Shown here: positions 11 through 16,974 of the stretch, one piece after another
How the letters are laid out: each line of letters opens with the position of its first letter
How positions within the stretch are numbered: the first letter of the stretch is position 1
Source: an uncultured virus (IMG/VR IMGVR_UViG_3300045996_002278)
Taxonomy: Duplodnaviria; Heunggongvirae; Uroviricota; Caudoviricetes
Virus record (IMG/VR): IMGVR_UViG_3300045996_002278
Reading direction: 5' to 3' (one strand)
Length of the DNA: 20,000 nucleotides
Made by a program: the position numbers and the translations under genes
Notes under the pieces: generated by a model
Databases searched by the model: none
What the model was told of the DNA's origin: nothing
Seen by the model: the letters and a program-made list of their open reading frames with translations, nothing else

Positions 11-1558
11 TCATAGGGGAACGGACGCACCGCCGATGGTAGCCCCGAACGAGACTTGTCTAATAAAGTTCCAGTACACCGCCGAGTCGCCCTTGTCCGG
101 CGACCGCTTGAGCTTTTTACGAATTTCTTCTTTATCCTCGATGTAGATCTTTCCTCCCCTTACACCCCACCTTACTACCGTGAGGTCCTGGAGAAGCTCG
201 TCATCGTCTGGTAGGGCGATCTTGCCTTCCTGGACATCGAGCCGCATGATCCAGTACATCTGGGCACGGAGGTTGAGGAACTTTTCAGACTTGGTACGCC
301 GTAGCTCGAGGGGCTTGGCCCCGCCGTTGAGGCCCACGATGTGGATGCCCAACCGGGTCAGCTCATTGACCGCCGAGCCACCCACGCCGATCGGGTCACA
401 CCCGACCCGGCGGGCGCGAATGCCGCCCGACTGAATCCAGGGGTGAACATCCCGTCTGGCCCACGCCGCCGCATCGGGACAGGGCTTGGGGATCAGCTCG
501 AGGAGGACGGCGCCCTTGCCACGGGCTACGCAGCTCTTGTCGCCCTTGGGGCTGTTGGCGACGTCTAGCCCGAGCGCGGCCTCGCCCTTCTCCTGCAGGA
601 GCTGCCGTTCCTCGACCGACTTGTTAACGCACTTCTGGAGCCAGTCCCGGCGGATCAGGGAGTCGGTCGCCTGCTGCGGCGACTGGCCGCGGACACGGGA
701 GAGGTAGAGGTTGGACTCCTCACCGTACTCGACCTTCCGCTCCTCCACCTTCTGGAAGGACACGGCGCCCGGAATCATCTGCTCCTTCGTCACCACGTTC
801 GGGTGGTCCAGGGCGGAGATGACGACGTGGGTGACGTTGTCTCGCTCGCAGAACTGGTGAAGGGTGTCGAACTGGTTGTCCGGGTTGCCCAGCCCCAGGA
901 TCAGGTTGTGGGGGTCCACGCAGGTGTTCACCACGGCGGTGAGCACGGCGTTGTCGATACCCGGCATTTCCTCCATGATGAACAGCATGTGAGCCGCGTG
1001 GAAGCCCTGGGCCTTGGTGGCGGACTCTTCGTCCGCACCGACGCCCACCGGGAAGCCCAGCATGATCCATTCGTCTCGCATCGGGCGGACCCGGATGCGC
1101 ATGGTGTCCAGGGTGGCGTTGGGTCGCCGTGCCTGGAACCGTGGCCAAAGGGACTGGATTTCCTTCCACAGGTTCAGCTTGAGCTGGTCAGCCTTCGGTG
1201 CGAGGGTGATGATGAGGCTGTTCTCGAAGGCGTCGAGGAACCACAGCCCGATGCCGGCGGCCAGGCGGGTCTTGCCCGTCCCGGTGCCGGACTCGACACC
1301 CACCCACTTGCCGTTGGACAGCTCGTCGCAGATAACCTTGAGGGGGTTGACCGACCCGTCCCACTCCCGGTTCTGGTACTCCGGGAGGAGGGTCCAGTCC
1401 AGGCTCCATGGGTCGAACTTCAGGACTTCGGTGAGGTAGAGGTAGGCGGACTTCTTGTGCCGGGCCGCGGTAATGGTCCGGTTCTTCCGGCTCTCTCCAC
1501 CTTCGAGGGAGACGCAGAAGTCATCCAACACCCGGTTGAACAGGGTATCGTCGCCCAC
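11..1558 (-). CDS. terL: Phage terminase large subunit
   Basis: 515 aa, GTG start. Walker A (ESGTGTGKT), Walker B (LFIMEE), coupling motif GLGNP, RNase H-like nuclease motifs LGLDVA..GDKS and C-terminal RSPDKGDS. Confidence 0.93.
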   Translation of the reverse strand: MGDDTLFNRVLDDFCVSLEGGESRKNRTITAARHKKSAYLYLTEVLKFDPWSLDWTLLPEYQNREWDGSVNPLKVICDELSNGKWVGVESGTGTGKTRLAAGIGLWFLDAFENSLIITLAPKADQLKLNLWKEIQSLWPRFQARRPNATLDTMRIRVRPMRDEWIMLGFPVGVGADEESATKAQGFHAAHMLFIMEEMPGIDNAVLTAVVNTCVDPHNLILGLGNPDNQFDTLHQFCERDNVTHVVISALDHPNVVTKEQMIPGAVSFQKVEERKVEYGEESNLYLSRVRGQSPQQATDSLIRRDWLQKCVNKSVEERQLLQEKGEAALGLDVANSPKGDKSCVARGKGAVLLELIPKPCPDAAAWARRDVHPWIQSGGIRARRVGCDPIGVGGSAVNELTRLGIHIVGLNGGAKPLELRRTKSEKFLNLRAQMYWIMRLDVQEGKIALPDDDELLQDLTVVRWGVRGGKIYIEDKEEIRKKLKRSPDKGDSAVYWNFIRQVSFGATIGGASVPL

Positions 1559-2742: not shown

Positions 2743-3529
2743 CTTCGCCTCCCTCGTTAAGAATGATTTCGTCCAGCTGCCCGGTCAGTTGCTCCTGCGT
2801 CCGGCTGGGCAGCTCGGGCCGGTTGGCCAGGTGCCGGATGCGACGGGTTAGGGCCGACAGGATGTGGGGGTCGTGAACCTCCTCCACGATCGCCTGTTGG
2901 ATCAGCCCCATGAAGGTGATCATCTGCTTGCTGTTGATGTACGTCTGGAGGGCTTCCTCGCGCCGGCGCTCCGTGTCCGCCAGTTTGCGGCGCAGCTCGA
3001 TCCATTCCTGGATCTCGGCCCAGTGCTGGTGGTCGGTCTTCTTCAGCTCTAGGGCAGATTCGAGCAGGGCAGTGCTGAGAAGAATATCCCCTAGCTTATT
3101 ATCATCTACCGCTTTTCTGAGCTTGCGGATACCGTCAACGATCAGCTGCCAGGCGTGGGGAATCTCACCCGACTCCAGTCGCTCAAGGAGTTCACCCACC
3201 CGGGCGTCGGTGAGCCGCATCTCGGCGTTAAGGGAGAGGAGGTCGTGATCTCCCGCGAAAGTGTCCAGCATCTCCACCAGGCGGGCTGGTATCTTCCGAG
3301 CGTAGCCGCGGCCGTAGAAGTGCTCGGGGCCAAAGTCGAACCTCCGGTCTACTGGTGTGGCGCCCCCGTGATGCTTGCAACGATCCCGGCCGGTGACCGG
3401 GTAGTTGTGGCAATAAAGATCTTCTCCGGTAGTACCACGCCCCTGAAGAACGGCGTTGCACCTGCCCGCGGCAGGCTTACGCTTGTCCATCCGGTTCTCG
3501 TGGTTGGGAGCTGGGACGTTGGTCGGCAT
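2564..3529 (-). CDS. Putative terminase small subunit (HGG-motif Cys/His N-terminus)
   Basis: RCNA...YC...GRDRCKHHGG motif typical of HGGxSTG-type phage proteins, followed by a helical region. First gene of the operon that leads to terL. Confidence 0.65.
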   Translation of the reverse strand: MPTNVPAPNHENRMDKRKPAAGRCNAVLQGRGTTGEDLYCHNYPVTGRDRCKHHGGATPVDRRFDFGPEHFYGRGYARKIPARLVEMLDTFAGDHDLLSLNAEMRLTDARVGELLERLESGEIPHAWQLIVDGIRKLRKAVDDNKLGDILLSTALLESALELKKTDHQHWAEIQEWIELRRKLADTERRREEALQTYINSKQMITFMGLIQQAIVEEVHDPHILSALTRRIRHLANRPELPSRTQEQLTGQLDEIILNEGGEDGGEGSGLDQSGPGEPDAADAGGPPEPGGDGFLYPEPGPAGQVGGGSDQAEVPGERGAD

Positions 3530-3869
3530 GGGTAAGACTCTATGAACTGGTGGAGCTCGGATGACACCCCCTAGTTCAGGGTTTAGAGATCTTACTACAC
3601 ACTAGAGGAGGAAAGCTACAGAAATTTCTAGAAAAATTTTGGAGGGTGCCCCCTGGACCTGGGGCTGTATCCCGTTATACGAGAACGCAATGCCTATTTG
3701 AGAAGCTTCCCCTACCAGGGTTTCGAAGGCAATCCCGAAGGGTATAGGTACGTCAGTGCACCTGCCTCCTAATATCCGTACCCTGGATATGAATGTTCTA
3801 AGTACAAAGCTTTTTCTAAAACTTTAGTTTCCCGTATAGGATACGCGTGCCGATACAGTGGGGCGTCAA

Positions 3870-4270
3870 CGTTTCATTATGAAAAATACCCCTCCCATAC
3901 CTTATAAATATTCATCCATAATGTATAATTATAAATTGAAATGTATAAATGAACCTAAGTCCTTTAAAATCAATAAGTTATAAATGATCCTGGAATGGCA
4001 TTATGCATAATGTGAATAAAAAGTAAACGAAATGTATATTTATGAATAGGATTAATGGGTTATGAAAACAGCCTATCTTAATACAAAAAAGTTACTGGCA
4101 TATACATATTGAATTTCTTATATTCATTTCAAGTTAAATGATTAATAAAAATTAGTTAGTCAATAGTAATTAAAATTGTTACAAAACAAAGTATTGACAA
4201 AAAGATAATAAACGATTAAATTATTCCTAAGTTAAATGAAAGGAAAATACAAATAAGAATAAAAAGTTTG
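3870..4270. other. AT-rich non-coding island at the divergent junction (candidate origin, packaging or regulatory region)
   Basis: Lines 3901-3960 and 4141-4200 have only 11 and 10 G+C per 60 nt, against GC-rich flanks. Contains palindromes and short direct repeats. Confidence 0.8.
4194..4222 (+). promoter_or_regulatory. sigma70-type early promoter
   Basis: TTGACA (4194-4199), 17 nt spacer, TAAATT (4217-4222); A/T-rich UP-like sequence upstream; precedes the rightward gene array. Confidence 0.75.
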
Positions 4271-4340
4271 AGAAATACCGGCCGGGCGGCTCCCGGATCA
4301 ACCTGGGCACCTGGTGTGCCCCCAGAACGGAGAATGACAT

Positions 4341-4592
4341 ATGGCGAAGCGTGGATACCAGTTCATGGTCGACAGCGCCGACCTGCAGGCGGGCGTGCGC
4401 AAGGTCCCCCTGGACTACAAGCCGGAGCAGACCCAACAGCTGTACGCAACGTACTCGGTCGCGCGCCTTAACCTGTTCGCGGAGCACCGCAAGGTTATCG
4501 TGGCCCACCAGCAGATGATCCAGGATTGGGTGACGATCAAGCTGGAGGACGTGCCGACCCTCGAGCTGGCCGAGGAGCAGGAGACCGCGTAA
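4341..4592 (+). CDS. Hypothetical protein (83 aa)
   Basis: First ORF after the promoter; ACGGAG SD-like site; GC-rich third codon positions. Confidence 0.8.
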   Translation: MAKRGYQFMVDSADLQAGVRKVPLDYKPEQTQQLYATYSVARLNLFAEHRKVIVAHQQMIQDWVTIKLEDVPTLELAEEQETA

Positions 4593-4599
4593 GCGGGGC

Positions 4600-4623
4600 G
4601 GGGGACCGGGCAACCGGTCCCCC
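4600..4623 (+). terminator. 10-bp GC hairpin with GCAA tetraloop (weak terminator or stabilising hairpin)
   Basis: GGGGGACCGG-GCAA-CCGGTCCCCC just after the stop codon; only a short T tract follows. Confidence 0.45.
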
Positions 4624-4629
4624 AGCTTT

Positions 4630-4678
4630 CCTCCGCGCTGTAGGGCGCGTACGGCCCGGTGCAACTCCGGGGCGGAGG
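4630..4678 (+). ncRNA. tRNA-like mini-element 1
   Basis: CCTCCGC/GCGGAGG stem; internal CTGTA/TACGG hairpin; T-arm CCCGG-TGCAACT-CCGGG. Confidence 0.65.
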
Positions 4679-4721
4679 GCTGGTAGTGCAGCATGGGTTC
4701 CATCCCCAACTGGAGGTCCAG

Positions 4722-4877
4722 ATGTACCAGGTTTTCTACGGCCAGCACTGGCTCCGCTCCCGGAGCAAGACGTTCCCCACGAAGGCACTGGCCCTCAAGT
4801 TCGCCCGCCAGCGCAAGACCCCGTACGTCCGCGTGATCCGAATCCAGCGCGACGTCGTGTGGTCCCGGGGGAGCTGA
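4722..4877 (+). CDS. Small basic protein (51 aa, MYQVFYGQHW...)
   Basis: TGGAGG SD 5 nt upstream of ATG 4722. Confidence 0.7.
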   Translation: MYQVFYGQHWLRSRSKTFPTKALALKFARQRKTPYVRVIRIQRDVVWSRGS

Positions 4878-4892
4878 CCCCCCAGCAGAATC

Positions 4893-4935
4893 CCCTGGTT
4901 CCCGGCGCACTGGAGGTTCGATTCCTCCGCCAGGG
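4893..4935 (+). ncRNA. tRNA-like mini-element 2
   Basis: CCCTGGT/GCCAGGG stem; 12-nt linker TCCCGGCGCACT; T-arm GGAGG-TTCGATT-CCTCC. Confidence 0.8.
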
Positions 4936-4980
4936 CTGCAGGCCCCGCAGTAGAACGGAGAACTTTAACTGGAGGTACAG

Positions 4981-5127
4981 ATGAGACCCCTGCTTGCCGC
5001 GGTATGCGTGCTCGTGATGGTGGGTGCAGCGATGGCCCAGATCACGAAGGCGCTGCCCCTCGAGTTCGCCGCCGTGCTCTCGGTGACGGCGTTCCTGGTG
5101 CTGATTACCAAGTGCGGGGAGGCGTAA
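4981..5127 (+). CDS. Small two-helix membrane protein (48 aa, MRPLLAAVCVLVMVG...)
   Basis: TGGAGG SD; two hydrophobic stretches. Too short to appear in the ORF track. Confidence 0.7.
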   Translation: MRPLLAAVCVLVMVGAAMAQITKALPLEFAAVLSVTAFLVLITKCGEA

Positions 5128-5133
5128 TCCCCC

Positions 5134-5250
5134 ATGCTCAGCCCTGAGCGGTACCAGCTGCTCCTCCACCTGCTTGGAAAGGCGTGGGAGCTGAAGTCCC
5201 AGCACCTGCACAACATGACGCTAGCGATGGCGCAGGTTCACCAGCAGTAG
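5134..5250 (+). CDS. Hypothetical micro-protein (38 aa, MLSPERYQLL...)
   Basis: GGAGG upstream; fills the gap between neighbouring genes. Confidence 0.55.
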   Translation: MLSPERYQLLLHLLGKAWELKSQHLHNMTLAMAQVHQQ

Positions 5251-5268
5251 CAAGGGAGGCTACACCAG

Positions 5269-5451
5269 ATGTTCCACACGCTTGTGGAGGCGCACCACGC
5301 CCTGAACGCGTGGCTCAGCGCCCCGAACCGCGGGGGATGCTGCGGGTGGACCTTCGGCGTCCCCAGCACCAAGGGCAGCATGGTGTACAGCTACACGATC
5401 ATCTCCGGGGTCGACAAGACCATGCACGCCCCGATCCCCTGGATGCAGTGA
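5269..5451 (+). CDS. Hypothetical protein (60 aa)
   Basis: GGGAGG SD; present in the ORF track. Confidence 0.7.
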   Translation: MFHTLVEAHHALNAWLSAPNRGGCCGWTFGVPSTKGSMVYSYTIISGVDKTMHAPIPWMQ

Positions 5452-5494
5452 ACCTGGCCCAGGTGCAGCTGGGGGTTCGACTCCCCCACCAGGT
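5452..5494 (+). ncRNA. tRNA-like mini-element 3
   Basis: ACCTGG/CCAGGT stem; 12-nt linker CCAGGTGCAGCT; T-arm GGGGG-TTCGACT-CCCCC. Confidence 0.75.
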
Positions 5495-5530
5495 TTGGCA
5501 GGTGCAGTTCCACTCCAACAGGAGGTCCAG

Positions 5531-5656
5531 ATGAACCGCGAGTATCTCGACAAGCTGTTTTCCTGGTTTACGGGCGCGCCCCAGCTGCCGACCCTGTTCA
5601 TGCTTCGGCAGCGGCGCCAGGAGTACTACCGCTCGTTCGGGCTGCGCCGGAGGTAG
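5531..5656 (+). CDS. Hypothetical micro-protein (41 aa, MNREYLDKLF...)
   Basis: AGGAGG SD 5 nt upstream of ATG. Confidence 0.7.
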   Translation: MNREYLDKLFSWFTGAPQLPTLFMLRQRRQEYYRSFGLRRR

Positions 5657-5695
5657 CAGCAGCTGAGGTTCCAATCCTCGTAGGAGGTACAGCAG

Positions 5696-5893
5696 ATGAC
5701 GGAGCGTGAACAACTGCTCGCCCGCGTGGCTGCGAAAAAGTTCGCCAGCCGTCTAAAGACGGAGCGCTGGGCCGAGCCGATCCCCATGGAGTGGGAGAAG
5801 CTGTCCGACGAGCAGGTACGCTATGCGATCGAGGTGCTGCCACAGTTCGGCGTGCACCGACGCCCCGACCTGAAGTGGGAGGCATCCTGGTAG
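5696..5893 (+). CDS. Hypothetical protein (65 aa)
   Basis: TAGGAGG SD; present in the ORF track. Confidence 0.75.
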   Translation: MTEREQLLARVAAKKFASRLKTERWAEPIPMEWEKLSDEQVRYAIEVLPQFGVHRRPDLKWEASW

Positions 5894-5903
5894 CAGCATA
5901 ACC

Positions 5904-5946
5904 GGCCGGCCACGGGCGCACTGGAGGTTCGACTCCTCCGCCGGCC
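5904..5946 (+). ncRNA. tRNA-like mini-element 4
   Basis: GGCCGGC/GCCGGCC stem; 12-nt linker CACGGGCGCACT; T-arm GGAGG-TTCGACT-CCTCC. Confidence 0.8.
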
Positions 5947-5995
5947 CATGCAGGTACAGCAGCACGGGTTCCACTCCCAACTGAAGGAGCAGCGC

Positions 5996-6238
5996 ATGGC
6001 CACGCAAGTCCGCACGTTCCGGCTCTCGATTCTGCTCGAGGCCCCACTGAAGCACCTCCGCGGGTACAAGTTCGAGGCCCGACTGGTCCGCGTGATCACG
6101 ACCGCGCTGAACCCCGACAAAGTGAAGGACACGTTTTTCCAGCAGACGATCGAGCAGCTCAAGATCCCGCACGAATACATATCGGGCTACGAGTGGAGGG
6201 AGATGAAGCCCGGTGAACTGGTCCCTATGAGCAGCTAA
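5996..6238 (+). CDS. Hypothetical protein (80 aa, MATQVRTFRL...)
   Basis: AAGGAG SD before ATG 5996. Confidence 0.75.
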   Translation: MATQVRTFRLSILLEAPLKHLRGYKFEARLVRVITTALNPDKVKDTFFQQTIEQLKIPHEYISGYEWREMKPGELVPMSS

Positions 6239-6282
6239 CGACAGGAGGATCTATGCGTAGGGCCGCGTAAAAAGCCGCGGCA

Positions 6283-6330
6283 GCTGGGAGGACGACAGGC
6301 GTCCGTGCTGGTTCGAGTCCAGCCCCCAGT
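6283..6330 (+). ncRNA. tRNA-like mini-element 5
   Basis: GCTGGG/CCCAGT stem; internal GGACG-ACAGG-CGTCC hairpin; T-arm GCTGG-TTCGAGT-CCAGC. Confidence 0.75.
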
Positions 6331-6378
6331 GTGCAGGACAAGCAGCATGGGTTCCAACCCCAACAGGAGGTACAGCTT

Positions 6379-6507
6379 ATGCAGGTGCCCGACCAGCTTC
6401 TCGTGCGCTGTCCCGATTGCGGCCAGCTGCACCGTCCCCTGTACATCGGTAAGCTCGTGGATCAGCTGTTCATCCAGTGGCTCGCCGACAACAGTTCGAC
6501 CAACTGA
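6379..6507 (+). CDS. Micro-protein with CPDCGQLH motif (42 aa)
   Basis: AGGAGG SD; CxxC motif. Confidence 0.65.
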   Translation: MQVPDQLLVRCPDCGQLHRPLYIGKLVDQLFIQWLADNSSTN

Positions 6508-6518
6508 AGGAGCAGCAC

Positions 6519-6698
6519 ATGCAAGCGTACCACTGGAAGCTCCGGCTCCAGGTGCAGGGCCGGCTGGTCGAGGAGCTGGAGATCAAGCTCGTGGCGCACA
6601 GCGAGCAGGACTCCAAGCACCTGATCGAGATGTACCTGGCACCCCAGTTCCCCATCATGAAGTGGACCCTGCTCAACATCGAACCGGAGGATAAGTAA
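6519..6698 (+). CDS. Hypothetical protein (59 aa, MQAYHWKLRL...)
   Basis: AAGGAG SD before ATG 6519. Confidence 0.7.
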   Translation: MQAYHWKLRLQVQGRLVEELEIKLVAHSEQDSKHLIEMYLAPQFPIMKWTLLNIEPEDK

Positions 6699-6872
6699 AT
6701 GCGCGTACAAATCGAGGGCCGCCAGCTGATCCTCACGATTGATCTGGACAACGTGGCGGGCCACACGTCGAACGGGAACATCTCAATCGCCAGCACCCAC
6801 GGCTGGCTGAAGATCGAGGAGGGCGTCAGCTTGTCCCTCAACTTGGTCAAGAAAGTGAAGGCCAACTCATGA
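6699..6872 (+). CDS. Small beta-rich hypothetical protein (57 aa, MRVQIEGRQLILTIDL...IASTHG...LSLNL)
   Basis: GGAGG SD; coupled to neighbours at both ends; resembles a widespread small 'IAST.G...LN' protein family. Confidence 0.75.
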   Translation: MRVQIEGRQLILTIDLDNVAGHTSNGNISIASTHGWLKIEEGVSLSLNLVKKVKANS

Positions 6873-7099
6873 AATGGCAGGAGCTGAACGACGAGCTGAT
6901 CGGCTGGCACGTGGACGAGGTGATCGAGTGCCTGGACGTCAAGCCGACCACCGAGCGCGCCCTGATGCTTGCTGCTCCGACAGCATATATGGACGACCAG
7001 GTTGAGCTGGAGACCGTGTGGGAGCAGCTGGAATCGGAGGTCCAGCAGGACATCATCCTCGCGCAGCGGAAGCAGATCGCGGATCTGATGGGTAAGTAG
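6869..7099 (+). CDS. Hypothetical acidic protein (76 aa)
   Basis: ATGA overlap; present in the ORF track. Confidence 0.75.
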   Translation: MKWQELNDELIGWHVDEVIECLDVKPTTERALMLAAPTAYMDDQVELETVWEQLESEVQQDIILAQRKQIADLMGK

Positions 7100-7128
7100 C
7101 AGGATGGTCTGTTAAATGCGGCACAGGT

Positions 7129-7173
7129 TGGCCGGCCGTTCCTGGGGCACGGGGTTCGACTCCCCACCGGCCA
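7129..7173 (+). ncRNA. tRNA-like mini-element 6
   Basis: TGGCCGG/CCGGCCA stem; T-arm GGGG-TTCGACT-CCCC; followed by a CTCCCCAC/GTGGGGAG hairpin (7174-7195). Confidence 0.75.
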
Positions 7174-7228
7174 CTCCCCACAACTGGGTGGGGAGCACAA
7201 CGGAGAACCTCAGCATCAGAGGTGTGCC

Positions 7229-7342
7229 ATGCAATACTACGAGCATGAAGGCTTGCCGGCCGCTCCATCGGTGGAAGCGTCCATTACCCAGGCCCTGCTG
7301 ATCATCCAGCGCAGGATCGTGGGCAGCAGGAGGACCACGTGA
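7229..7342 (+). CDS. Hypothetical micro-protein (37 aa)
   Basis: GAGGTG SD; stop overlaps the next start (GTGA). Confidence 0.55.
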   Translation: MQYYEHEGLPAAPSVEASITQALLIIQRRIVGSRRTT

Positions 7343-7503
7343 TCCGTCGACAGAAGGGCAAGAAGCGGCGCATGCACGGCCTGGGACTCCGCGAAGAGGT
7401 CGAGCGCGTGATGCGCTACCAGCAATTCCTGGACCGCACCGCCAAGGAGCGCGTCGGCCAGATGGTCCGCCTCAGCGTCCCCACCAGCAAGGAGGACAGG
7501 TGA
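7339..7503 (+). CDS. Small basic protein (54 aa, MIRRQKGKKRR...)
   Basis: AGGAGG SD; GTGA overlaps at both ends. Confidence 0.65.
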   Translation: MIRRQKGKKRRMHGLGLREEVERVMRYQQFLDRTAKERVGQMVRLSVPTSKEDR

Positions 7504-7754
7504 AGGTCGAGGTGATGTGGCACTGGCAGGTCTGTCCGGCCTCCGATGACATCTGCCACCTGCTCTACGAGCAGGAAGTGGCCGGCAAGAAGTTCGGTCT
7601 GATGATCAACCACTCGCAGAACGACCAGCTCGTAGTATTCCTGGACGGTGACTTCGGTCTCCTGCTCATTGACGGAGAGATTGTCCAGAACCCCAGCCAG
7701 GTATTCCAACTGGCCGGCCCCGCGCTGGACGCGGTACGTGGAAGGGACGACTGA
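7500..7754 (+). CDS. Hypothetical protein (84 aa)
   Basis: AAGGAGG SD; coupled to neighbours. Confidence 0.75.
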   Translation: MKVEVMWHWQVCPASDDICHLLYEQEVAGKKFGLMINHSQNDQLVVFLDGDFGLLLIDGEIVQNPSQVFQLAGPALDAVRGRDD

Positions 7755-7858
7755 TGCCCCATCCCATAAAGGCGCTGGTATTCGCTCTTCTATACCAGCC
7801 CAAATACGAGTGGTCCGCAGCGCTGGATCACTATCTGGCCATCGTGAAGGAGCGGTAG
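7754..7858 (+). CDS. Hypothetical micro-protein (34 aa, MPHPIKALVF...)
   Basis: TGATG overlap; ends 1 nt before the next ATG. Confidence 0.55.
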   Translation: MPHPIKALVFALLYQPKYEWSAALDHYLAIVKER

Positions 7859-7859
7859 C

Positions 7860-8111
7860 ATGTATCCCAGGTTCACGCACGAGGACATGCACCTGTTCGA
7901 GTCAGACCAGGCGCGCATCGACTACGTGGTCGCCGAGGCGGAGGCCCAGTACAAGCAGTTGACGGCCGACGCCGGACCACACGAGATCGTGATCCCCGAG
8001 GAAGATTTCCTGGAGAACCTCTGGGAGCAGACGTTCACATGGACACAGACGCTCACGCTCCGGGGTGAGCGCATCACCGTCTACTGCCTGGCCTGGATTC
8101 GGGAGGACTGA
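7860..8111 (+). CDS. Hypothetical acidic protein (83 aa)
   Basis: AAGGAG SD; coupled to the next gene. Confidence 0.75.
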   Translation: MYPRFTHEDMHLFESDQARIDYVVAEAEAQYKQLTADAGPHEIVIPEEDFLENLWEQTFTWTQTLTLRGERITVYCLAWIRED

Positions 8112-9229: not shown

Positions 9230-9278
9230 AGCAGGGACCGGGACCGGCCGGCATGCAGCCTCGAGAGCTGCCCCTGCT
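9230..9278 (+). ncRNA. tRNA-like mini-element 7 (divergent)
   Basis: AGCAGGG/CCCTGCT stem; internal CCGG/CCGG hairpin; arm GCAGC-CTCGAGA-GCTGC stacked directly on the 3' stem strand. Confidence 0.55.
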
Positions 9279-9319
9279 TTGTAACAAGTGTTGGACTTCT
9301 GGCCAGCAGATGGTATATT
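9279..9319 (+). promoter_or_regulatory. Repeated phage promoter, copy A
   Basis: TTGTAAC..TGGACT (9292-9297), 16 nt spacer ending GCAGATGG, TATATT (9314-9319); extended -10 TG. Confidence 0.7.
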
Positions 9320-11807: not shown

Positions 11808-11848
11808 TTGTAACAAGCATTGGACATCTGTCCAGCAGATGGTATATT
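11808..11848 (+). promoter_or_regulatory. Repeated phage promoter, copy B
   Basis: TTGTAACAAG..TGGACA (11821-11826), 16 nt spacer ending CCAGCAGATGG, TATATT (11843-11848); closely similar to copy A. Confidence 0.7.
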
Positions 11849-13312: not shown

Positions 13313-13322
13313 GGAATAGACG

Positions 13323-13388
13323 ATGCGATGGTTGGCCGCGTTCATTAAGCTATGGGCCGACCTGATGCGGGTATTCTTCTTCCCCTAA
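13323..13388 (+). CDS. Amphipathic micro-peptide (21 aa, MRWLAAFIKLWADLMRVFFFP)
   Basis: TAAGGA SD upstream of ATG. Confidence 0.5.
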   Translation: MRWLAAFIKLWADLMRVFFFP

Positions 13389-13397
13389 GGAGGGGAC

Positions 13398-13556
13398 GTG
13401 AGACTTCTCTTAAGCTTGCTCTGCTTCTCAGCGTTAGCGGTGGTGGTAGCCTACACCGCACTGGTGCTACACCGTGGAAGATCGTGGAAGCTCGAGGGAG
13501 AGTACACCGACCAGAAGGGTATCCCGTACGGGACACTCAAGGACCCCCGACCCTAA
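13398..13556 (+). CDS. Single-pass membrane micro-protein (52 aa, MRLLLSLLCFSALAVVVAYTALVL...)
   Basis: TAAGGAGG SD; GTG start; hydrophobic N-terminus. Confidence 0.65.
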   Translation: MRLLLSLLCFSALAVVVAYTALVLHRGRSWKLEGEYTDQKGIPYGTLKDPRP

Positions 13557-16642: not shown

Positions 16643-16809
16643 GCCAGTGCGAGGCGTGGTACCGGGCACCGGGCCGTACGTGGGTCCGGTGCCAGCAGGA
16701 GGCGACGGAGCTGTTCACCTTCGCGCTCCAGCAGAAGGAGTACTGCAAGGAGCATGCGGATCAGTTCGAGCAGAACCTGCCCAAGGGCACGTTCCACAGG
16801 GAAGGGTAA
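16639..16809 (+). CDS. Cys/His micro-protein (56 aa, MSQCEAW...C...YCKEH)
   Basis: GTGA overlap; C..C..CxxH pattern. Confidence 0.65.
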   Translation: MSQCEAWYRAPGRTWVRCQQEATELFTFALQQKEYCKEHADQFEQNLPKGTFHREG

Positions 16810-16848
16810 CGGGTTTAGCAGCTGCCGGGTGCAAGCCCCGGCCCCGTT
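16808..16848 (+). ncRNA. tRNA-like mini-element 9
   Basis: AACGGG/CCCGTT stem; linker contains GCAGCT as in element 3; T-arm CCGGG-TGCAAGC-CCCGG with a loop like element 1. Confidence 0.6.
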
Positions 16849-16928: not shown

Positions 16929-16974
16929 TTGTTACATTCTTTGGGGTGGACTTCCCTTGTGCAGATGGTAAATT
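16929..16974 (+). promoter_or_regulatory. Repeated phage promoter, copy C
   Basis: TTGTTAC..TGGACT (16947-16952), 16 nt spacer ending GCAGATGG, TAAATT (16969-16974). Confidence 0.65.

Follow-up and report, generated by a model that had tools for sequence, protein, structure and literature searches.

Anticodon-less tRNA top-half mimics between the genes of a soil phage contig: candidate signals for the processing of polycistronic RNA

Eight short elements built like the upper half of a transfer RNA (tRNA), with an acceptor-like stem stacked on a T arm, were found between the genes of an uncultured virus of the Caudoviricetes (IMG/VR record IMGVR_UViG_3300045996_002278). The DNA analysed, referred to here as the window, is a stretch of 20,000 nucleotides (nt) and forms part of a phage-like contig from soil. 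All eight elements are intergenic, lie on the coding (+) strand and measure 41-49 nt. Six punctuate a run of very small open reading frames (ORFs), and two stand further downstream at the ends of transcription units. The chances seem evenly balanced that they are cis-acting mimics of the acceptor stem and T arm within polycistronic phage transcripts, read by host RNase P and RNase Z.

Architecture, placement and conservation of the elements

Six of the elements had been proposed in an initial annotation of the window, and all six were found on the + strand where it placed them, with the stems and the loops that it described (TTCGATT, TTCGACT in three copies, TTCGAGT and TGCAACT). They are intergenic and begin 0-44 nt past a stop codon, in agreement with the claim that each shortly follows a stop. 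Three copies are exactly 43 nt long, and an anticodon arm and an encoded CCA are absent, as had also been noted. Two additional copies lie outside the range that was annotated (Table 1). The copy at 16808-16848 (loop TGCAAGC) was detected, alongside the six, with an architecture descriptor consisting of a 7-base-pair (bp) stem, a linker of 4-30 nt, a 5-bp stem, a T-loop-like 7-nt loop, direct stacking and at least 11 of 12 pairs. The copy at 9230-9278 (loop CTCGAGA, 12/12 pairs) was detected with a relaxed descriptor together with a weak covariance-model match.

The build is the same throughout: an acceptor-like helix of seven layers, a linker, and a five-layer stem with a 7-nt loop, the 3' strand of this T stem running straight into the 3' strand of the acceptor helix. 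Direct stacking of 7+5 = 12 layers, as in the top half of tRNA, is seen in 8/8 copies. Linkers are 12-18 nt long in the first six elements and 10-18 nt across all eight. RNAfold returns the top-half fold for each of the six in isolation, and 92 of the 96 stem cells of the eight copies are paired within their own copy. In the loop, C56, a purine at 57 and A58 are kept in 8/8 copies, and the closing pair is G-C in 7/8. The loop TTCGAnT is found in five copies, while the other three loops have diverged. The features of a tRNA top half, namely a 7-bp acceptor stem on a 5-bp T stem, a 7-nt T-loop and the G53-C61 pair, are thus present, and the coaxial 7+5 helix and the invariant loop positions support the earlier anatomical reading of the elements as mimics of that half. 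The helix ends cleanly at layer 7 in 5/8 copies, where the bases at -1 and 73 are unable to pair. The base after the discriminator is T in 6/8 copies and C in 1/8 (P ~4e-4 at 16.5% T, calculated post hoc).

Table 1. Elements and associated features of the window (positions in the 20,000-nt stretch)
Feature	Position	Strand	Description
Element	4630-4678	+	CCTCCGC/GCGGAGG; 18-nt linker with mini-hairpin; CCCGG/CCGGG; loop TGCAACT; 12/12 layers paired
Element	4893-4935	+	43 nt; CCCTGGT/GCCAGGG; 12-nt linker; GGAGG-TTCGATT-CCTCC; 12/12 paired, one G-U
Element	5452-5494	+	43 nt; directly 3' of TGA stop 5449-5451; 11/12 paired
Element	5904-5946	+	43 nt; GGCCGGC/GCCGGCC; GGAGG-TTCGACT-CCTCC; 12/12 paired
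Element	6283-6330	+	48 nt; linker forms a 5-bp hairpin, three-way junction; GCTGG-TTCGAGT-CCAGC; 11/12 paired
Element	7129-7173	+	45 nt; TGGCCGG/CCGGCCA; GGGG-TTCGACT-CCCC; 11/12 paired
Element (eighth, new)	9230-9278	+	AGCAGGG/CCCTGCT; 18-nt linker with hairpin; GCAGC-CTCGAGA-GCTGC; 12/12 paired; 4 nt past stop, end of first transcription unit, 14 nt before promoter-like site
Element (seventh, new)	16808-16848	+	AACGGGT/CCCCGTT; 10-nt linker; CCGGG-TGCAAGC-CCCGG; 11/12 paired; overlaps TAA stop 16807-16809; ~100 nt before promoter-like site
Plain hairpin	4600-4623	+	10 bp, GCAA loop; between stop of first ORF and element at 4630
Plain hairpin	7174-7195	+	8 bp; begins at discriminator position directly after element at 7129
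'Type B' leader	4688-4710, 5959-5981, 6342-6364; variants 5657-5687, 5504-5519	+	GCAGCA-Y, hairpin GGG-TTCCAnn-CCC, CAAC, before ribosome-binding site
Promoter-like motif	9292-9319, 11821-11848, 16947-16974	+	28 nt: TGGACWTC, N6, GCAGATGGTAWATT, extended -10 TG
Sigma-70-like promoter candidate	4194-4222	+	TTGACA, 17 nt, TAAATT; right edge of AT-rich region
Large terminase	11-1558	-	phrog_2, E 3e-22

The elements occupy the long gaps between genes. Between 4341 and 9852, every intergenic gap of at least 79 nt contains one (7/7), and the shorter gaps (39 and 22 nt) contain none. One long gap further downstream, at 13313-13397, has no element and instead has a small hairpin with a T-rich tail. 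The distance from the end of an element to the next start codon is 35-54 nt for the six array members and 83 nt for the copy at 9230. The copies at 9230 and 16808 lie at transcription-unit ends just upstream of a conserved promoter-like motif, and only the former is followed by a short UUUGU.

The number of elements is far above the background level. The descriptor gives seven matches in the window, all on the + strand. In loci around related terminases (80 metagenome and 80 viral loci reached via the large terminase, with flanks of up to 10 kb) it gives 27 matches in 3.57 Mb (both strands), several of which are parts of real tRNA or transfer-messenger RNA (tmRNA) genes. This corresponds to 0.15 expected matches per 20-kb strand against the seven observed (Poisson P ~3e-10). 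The exact motif GGTTCGANTCC occurs five times; with at most one mismatch there are 11 matches against 2.67 expected, and 0/200 shuffles reach 11.

Pairing is kept in the stems rather than sequence. Any two copies have 7-18 of 24 stem bases in common, and pairing across copies averages 3.6/7 in the acceptor helix and 3.0/5 in the T stem. Among the sequence-related copies (4893, 5452, 5904 and 7129), both sides have changed in 4/12 pairs. The covariation score of these four is 0.486 against 0.213 when shuffled (0/500 shuffles as high), and with slid partners as controls 40-62% of positions pair, against 95.7% in the true register.

Natural variants of two elements are found at 4-7% divergence in contigs of two other soil runs. 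The variant of the element at 5452 has three changes (5464, 5465 and 5468), in the linker alone. That of the element at 7129 has linker changes at 7137, 7139 and 7146, plus one at the outermost base pair (7129). Combined, 6/26 linker positions are changed against 1/62 stem and loop positions (Fisher P = 0.002), and therefore the minihelix is constrained and the linker is not. This bears on the GG that the initial annotation saw in every linker and compared with the conserved guanines of the D-loop. The dinucleotide is indeed present in all six linkers, and it is retained in both natural variants, but it is absent from the copy at 16808 and is common anyway in such GC-rich sequence. Because the linker is the fastest-changing part in the variants, with the constraint falling on the minihelix, and because GG is expected often by chance, a D-loop-like role is argued against.

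Identity of the elements and relation to known systems

The elements do not belong to a catalogued RNA family as judged by the standard models. ARAGORN, a check proposed with the initial annotation, reports no tRNA or tmRNA gene in the window, and no Rfam family reaches its gathering score anywhere in the window. With Rfam run in E-value mode over 3500-8000, only four sub-threshold matches are returned, two of them irrelevant and the others to tRNA-Sec (18.8 against a gathering score of 47) and mascRNA-menRNA (RF01684). The latter is given by the element at 7129, whose 17.8 bits (E 5.5) fall short of the gathering score of 42.5; the other copies have no match to this model, and the identity was rejected. 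Canonical tRNAs were likewise rejected: with linkers of 10-18 nt the elements do not form a cloverleaf with D and anticodon arms, and RF00005 has no match in 3500-8000 even at E <= 10. For the tRNA-like domain of tmRNA, ARAGORN finds no tmRNA and the 3:70 pair is C-G, U-A or G-C in all eight copies; an alanine-type chargeable minihelix is set aside by the same absence of G3:U70.

Several DNA-level or termination-related identities were also considered and rejected. Intrinsic (Rho-independent) terminators do not fit, as there is no + strand terminator-like site at or adjoining any element, the sole + strand call in the window being at 13360-13372, within the element-free gap described above. 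An attP-type copy of the 3' end of a host tRNA does not fit eight different sequences with both acceptor strands present, nor a CRISPR-like or mobile repeat copies that are not identical. Integron attC sites would leave the T-loop and the 7+5 geometry unexplained, and no core-site pair is evident.

The known system closest to the elements is the t-element of plant mitochondria; as with the further analogues below, the likeness lies in the probable way of working, and membership of the family is not claimed. These are non-decoding tRNA-like folds around the motif GGTTCRANYCC that lie beside protein genes in long transcripts; their borders coincide with mapped 5' and 3' ends of mRNAs, ends which are ascribed to RNase P and RNase Z, and non-templated C and A are added to the elements once released (Forner et al. 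2007, PMC1920247). The phage elements are likewise non-decoding tRNA-like folds with the motif, 5/8 copies matching GGTTCGANTCC exactly. The t-elements differ in being organellar, usually cloverleaf-like at ~70 nt, and scattered singly. The phage elements, in contrast, are minimal at 41-49 nt, have neither D nor anticodon arm, stand six in 2.5 kb and have no sequence homology to t-elements, and their cleavage is a proposal from the sequence.

Other systems share parts of this arrangement. In animal mitochondria, decoding tRNAs between cistrons mark the sites at which RNase P and RNase Z cut. There, too, tRNA-shaped units stand between cistrons, and a cut can be made at a stop codon or within it, as would be the case at 5452 and 16808; those units decode, however, which the phage elements cannot. 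The mascRNA and menRNA are non-decoding, and the transcript upstream of them gains its 3' end when RNase P and RNase Z excise them. The element at 7129 aligns end to end with the mascRNA model, below the gathering score as given above, but mascRNA is eukaryotic and keeps a cloverleaf. In the early operon of phage T7, RNase III sites are where a host RNase cleaves polycistronic RNA to give stable monocistronic messages. These are also structured intergenic signals in phage early RNA, but they are cut by another enzyme and are long irregular duplexes instead of tRNA top halves. Phage tRNA mimics are known as RNase P substrates, for example the species 1 and 2 RNAs of T4, the C4 RNA precursor of P1 and P7, and the M3 RNA of phi80. 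Like the tRNA-like domain of tmRNA, these combine an acceptor stem and a T arm without an anticodon. Unlike the elements, they are single genes and not intergenic arrays, and the window has no tmRNA by ARAGORN and no G3:U70. No description of tRNA-like minihelix arrays or of t-element-like signals in phage or bacterial operons was found in the openly readable literature.

No second array was found in the searches made among relatives. A blastn search of 3500-8000 against 50,697 phage records gives no match. Relatives of the phrog_1933 protein encoded beside the element at 9230 are found in three low-GC phages, none of which has an element. The exact pattern of linker plus T arm has two viral matches, both inside coding sequence. 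The exact pattern of the leader motif that follows several elements has no viral and four bacterial-genome matches, none with the continuation into a ribosome-binding site (RBS) or a nearby element; three of these look coding and one is non-coding, upstream of a tRNA-Met gene. These exact-pattern matches are only chance, as are the matches in the 160 terminase loci and the three phrog_1933 loci. A lone look-alike was found in a viral record of 52 kb and 67.5% GC (L151, G001), at 32974-33012 (+). It is 39 nt long, has 7+5 perfect pairs and the loop TTCGACT, and lies between a stop codon and the next gene. The terminase of this record is 40% identical to that of the window, and a tmRNA is present at 8225-8591 of L151 (Rfam 47.2 bits against 47). 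No second good copy came up when the record was scanned in full.

Processing by tRNA enzymes and the rival explanations

The top half of tRNA, that is the 12-bp acceptor/T helix with its T-loop, is recognised by RNase P, RNase Z and the CCA-adding enzyme. In the Bacillus subtilis RNase Z-tRNA structure, the enzyme contacts only the T arm plus acceptor stem, and it cuts right after the discriminator, where cytidines suppress it (PMC7479834). A role of the elements as cis processing signals is favoured because they keep exactly the recognised half, are without CCA, and in most copies have T after the discriminator and show a clean helix end. Cutting by RNase P and RNase Z is plausible in that it would agree with a geometry fixed at 12 layers, with the missing CCA and the U-rich position that follows the discriminator, and with elements standing in almost all of the long gaps. 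What the sequence shows is the anatomy of the elements, where they lie, their copy-specific pairing and how they are conserved; cleavage, the enzymes involved and an effect on expression are what we infer.

Under such processing, the 12-layer helix would be cut at its 5' edge by RNase P, RNase Z would cleave after the unpaired discriminator base, and the long early RNA would be split into short messages with defined ends. The 3' ends of upstream pieces would lie close to a stop codon and, in some cases, past a protective hairpin. The plain hairpin at 4600-4623 (-28.6 kcal/mol, z -4.1, 0/200 shuffles as stable) could protect the 3' end of the upstream message in this way after a cut at the 5' border of the element at 4630. 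Downstream pieces would start with a uniform leader of 35-54 nt; if RNase P acted alone, their 5' ends would be base-paired and resistant to 5'-end-dependent decay. At 9230 and 16808 the element would set the 3' end of a transcription unit, no canonical terminator being called there.

Several observations weigh against processing. Bacterial RNase P prefers G at +1, U at -1 and a 3' RCCA, and these features are mostly absent (G at +1 in 2/8 copies). At 5452 the element begins directly after the stop codon, and cleavage at its 5' border would strip the upstream ORF of all trailing RNA; at 16808, where element and stop codon overlap, such a cut would truncate the stop. Three of the eight T-loops are non-canonical. 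Folding energies of single elements are ordinary for GC-rich sequence (z -0.2 to -2.3), and the minimum-energy fold of the element at 5904 in a 105-nt context is a different structure. Pairing was one of the grounds for choosing the copies, and the sources of the covariation are paralogues of one genome and two variant contigs. MAFFT could not align the 5' strands of all eight copies, and covariance models were built from three (R1) and four (R2) of them. These models recover the four sequence-related copies only, missing those at 4630, 6283, 9230 and 16808 at E <= 1. Because the four-copy model misses the other four, the eight elements are a structural class defined by architecture and not a demonstrable homologous family. 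Among the relatives, the descriptor scan of 1.78 Mb found its 27 matches in 25/163 loci, with no arrays, and no RNA run is among the sequencing runs that hold the stretch. The models also give a weak match at 689-728 (+) (14-15 bits, E 0.15-0.4, loop TTGGACT), antisense to the terminase, which is probably due to chance.

The elements might instead be uncleaved structural modules, T-loop-capped stable folds that insulate neighbouring cistrons from one another, hinder exonucleases or the loading of Rho, or shape how the leader folds, with no part played by a tRNA enzyme. The elements always lie in long untranslated gaps, are accompanied by plain hairpins at 4600-4623 and 7174-7195, and at 9230 and 16808 occupy places in which a 3'-end structure is to be expected; the weakness of the RNase P preference features also fits. 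A mere stabiliser, however, needs no exact 7+5 count, no direct stacking and no T-loop consensus in every copy, nor does it need a U-rich 3' flank free of CCA, and the plain hairpins in the same gaps show that simpler structures were available to the phage. On balance this explanation is unlikely. The elements might also be binding sites for a regulatory protein that happens to recognise a T-arm-like hairpin, such as a translational repressor, an antiterminator or an RNA chaperone of phage or host, and would then act together with the leader hairpin downstream. In favour of such binding sites, the leader (GCAGCA-Y-GGGTTCCAnnCCC-CAAC-SD, SD being the Shine-Dalgarno sequence) is conserved in sequence far beyond the stems of the elements and holds a second T-arm-like hairpin. 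The variable stem sequences nevertheless argue against sequence-specific binding, and no RNA-binding family was recognised among the 40 ORFs scanned, most of which are unknowns; we regard this explanation as improbable, more so than that of structural modules.

A role in trans is slightly less improbable than a protein-binding role, yet still doubtful. Here the elements would be excised and CCA-added, and the released RNAs of 43-50 nt would accumulate and occupy, as decoys or sponges, host proteins that bind the top half of tRNA, candidate targets being processing or modification enzymes, toxins aimed at the acceptor end and defence nucleases. Many copies per transcript at the very start of infection would suit this, as would the completeness of the mimicry and stems as diverse as those of a tRNA population. 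Release or stability of the RNAs is a supposition, however, and a role in cis accounts better for elements so closely tied to gene borders. Most known tRNA-targeting defences cut anticodon loops, and the elements have no such loop to offer. A proposal that joins cis and trans roles is given the same low standing as the decoys: a dedicated tRNA-punctuation system of minimal anticodon-less top halves, in which the excised, CCA-tailed minihelices of 43-50 nt would themselves be the effectors: produced in large amounts during the first minutes of infection, they would soak up host tRNA-maturation enzymes or defence enzymes that target the acceptor end. Least probable of all are readings with no function at the RNA level, either as remnants of a decayed tRNA gene array or as repeated cassette borders for recombinational gene shuffling. 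Phage tRNA clusters interspersed with tiny ORFs are common, and in T4-type phages cassettes of promoters and stem-loops promote the shuffling of genes. Three of the copies are alike at 15-18/24 stem bases, and the whole gap is a repeated module. That D and anticodon arms were precisely lost eight times while 92/96 pairs were kept is nonetheless implausible; recombination needs sequence identity, yet the stems are the most diverged part, and the natural variants spare stems and loop.

If RNase P and RNase Z do cut the elements, the phage would have reached independently the solution of organelles for splitting polycistronic RNA, with the smallest tRNA mimic accepted (43 nt); the minimal 43-nt form and the dense array are the notable features here. 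Host tRNA-processing enzymes would then join the short list of RNases exploited in phage early expression, of which RNase III in T7 is the textbook case. The eight copies would offer a natural set of minimal substrates for enzymology, and compact, sequence-flexible processing tags for synthetic operons.

Leaders, promoters and gene context

Four elements are followed by (T)GCAGG and then by a strongly conserved leader, named 'type B' (Table 1). Its hairpin has 3-4 bp and a T-loop-like 7-nt loop, TTCCAnn, and the leader motif GGGTTCCANYCC has 7 matches with at most one mismatch against 1.2 expected. The leader is conserved in sequence far more tightly than the stems of the elements, which are kept only in pairing, so that two different kinds of constraint act within the same gaps. 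A translational leader or a protein-binding site is a possible function of the motif. An identical 16-nt leader segment, CAACTGAAGGAGCAGC, precedes two start codons (5978-5993 and 6501-6516). It has been duplicated into coding sequence, because the copy at 6501-6516 sits inside the 3' end of the preceding small ORF. A decamer, GAACGGAGAR, occurs five times on the + strand (4325, 4953, 9346, 9622 and 11887; 0.12 expected), each time shortly before a start codon and in three cases after a promoter-like site. It represents a ribosome-binding context of a second class, different from that with CAAC-GGAGGT.

The promoter-like motif has three copies in the window against none expected, two of which follow elements, and it has no exact match in IMG/VR. 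An AT-rich stretch of ~700 bp (~3560-4280) parts the leftward genes on the terminase side from the rightward block of very small ORFs, which have strong RBSs of the GGAGG type. GC content in the AT-rich region is 0.52-0.53 (1-kb bins) compared with ~0.62 elsewhere. Short A/T repeats (ATAAAT-type words) are numerous in the region, and several promoter-like sites are spread over its two strands; it may represent a cluster of promoters, an origin of replication or an end of the genome. The early transcript presumably starts at the sigma-70-like promoter candidate on its right edge.

Six of the 40 ORFs scanned have PHROG matches at E <= 0.001, the terminase alone with a known function, and Pfam gives no family for 38 of the 40. 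The nearest relatives of the terminase are only ~50% identical. The label 'early operon' for the rightward block is therefore drawn from its layout. All or part of the same DNA is found in contigs of seven soil or terrestrial metagenome DNA runs. Two tiny ORFs without a family match, at 4981-5127 (48 amino acids) and 13398-13556 (52 amino acids), were judged by eye from their hydrophobic cores and are read as putative single-pass membrane peptides.

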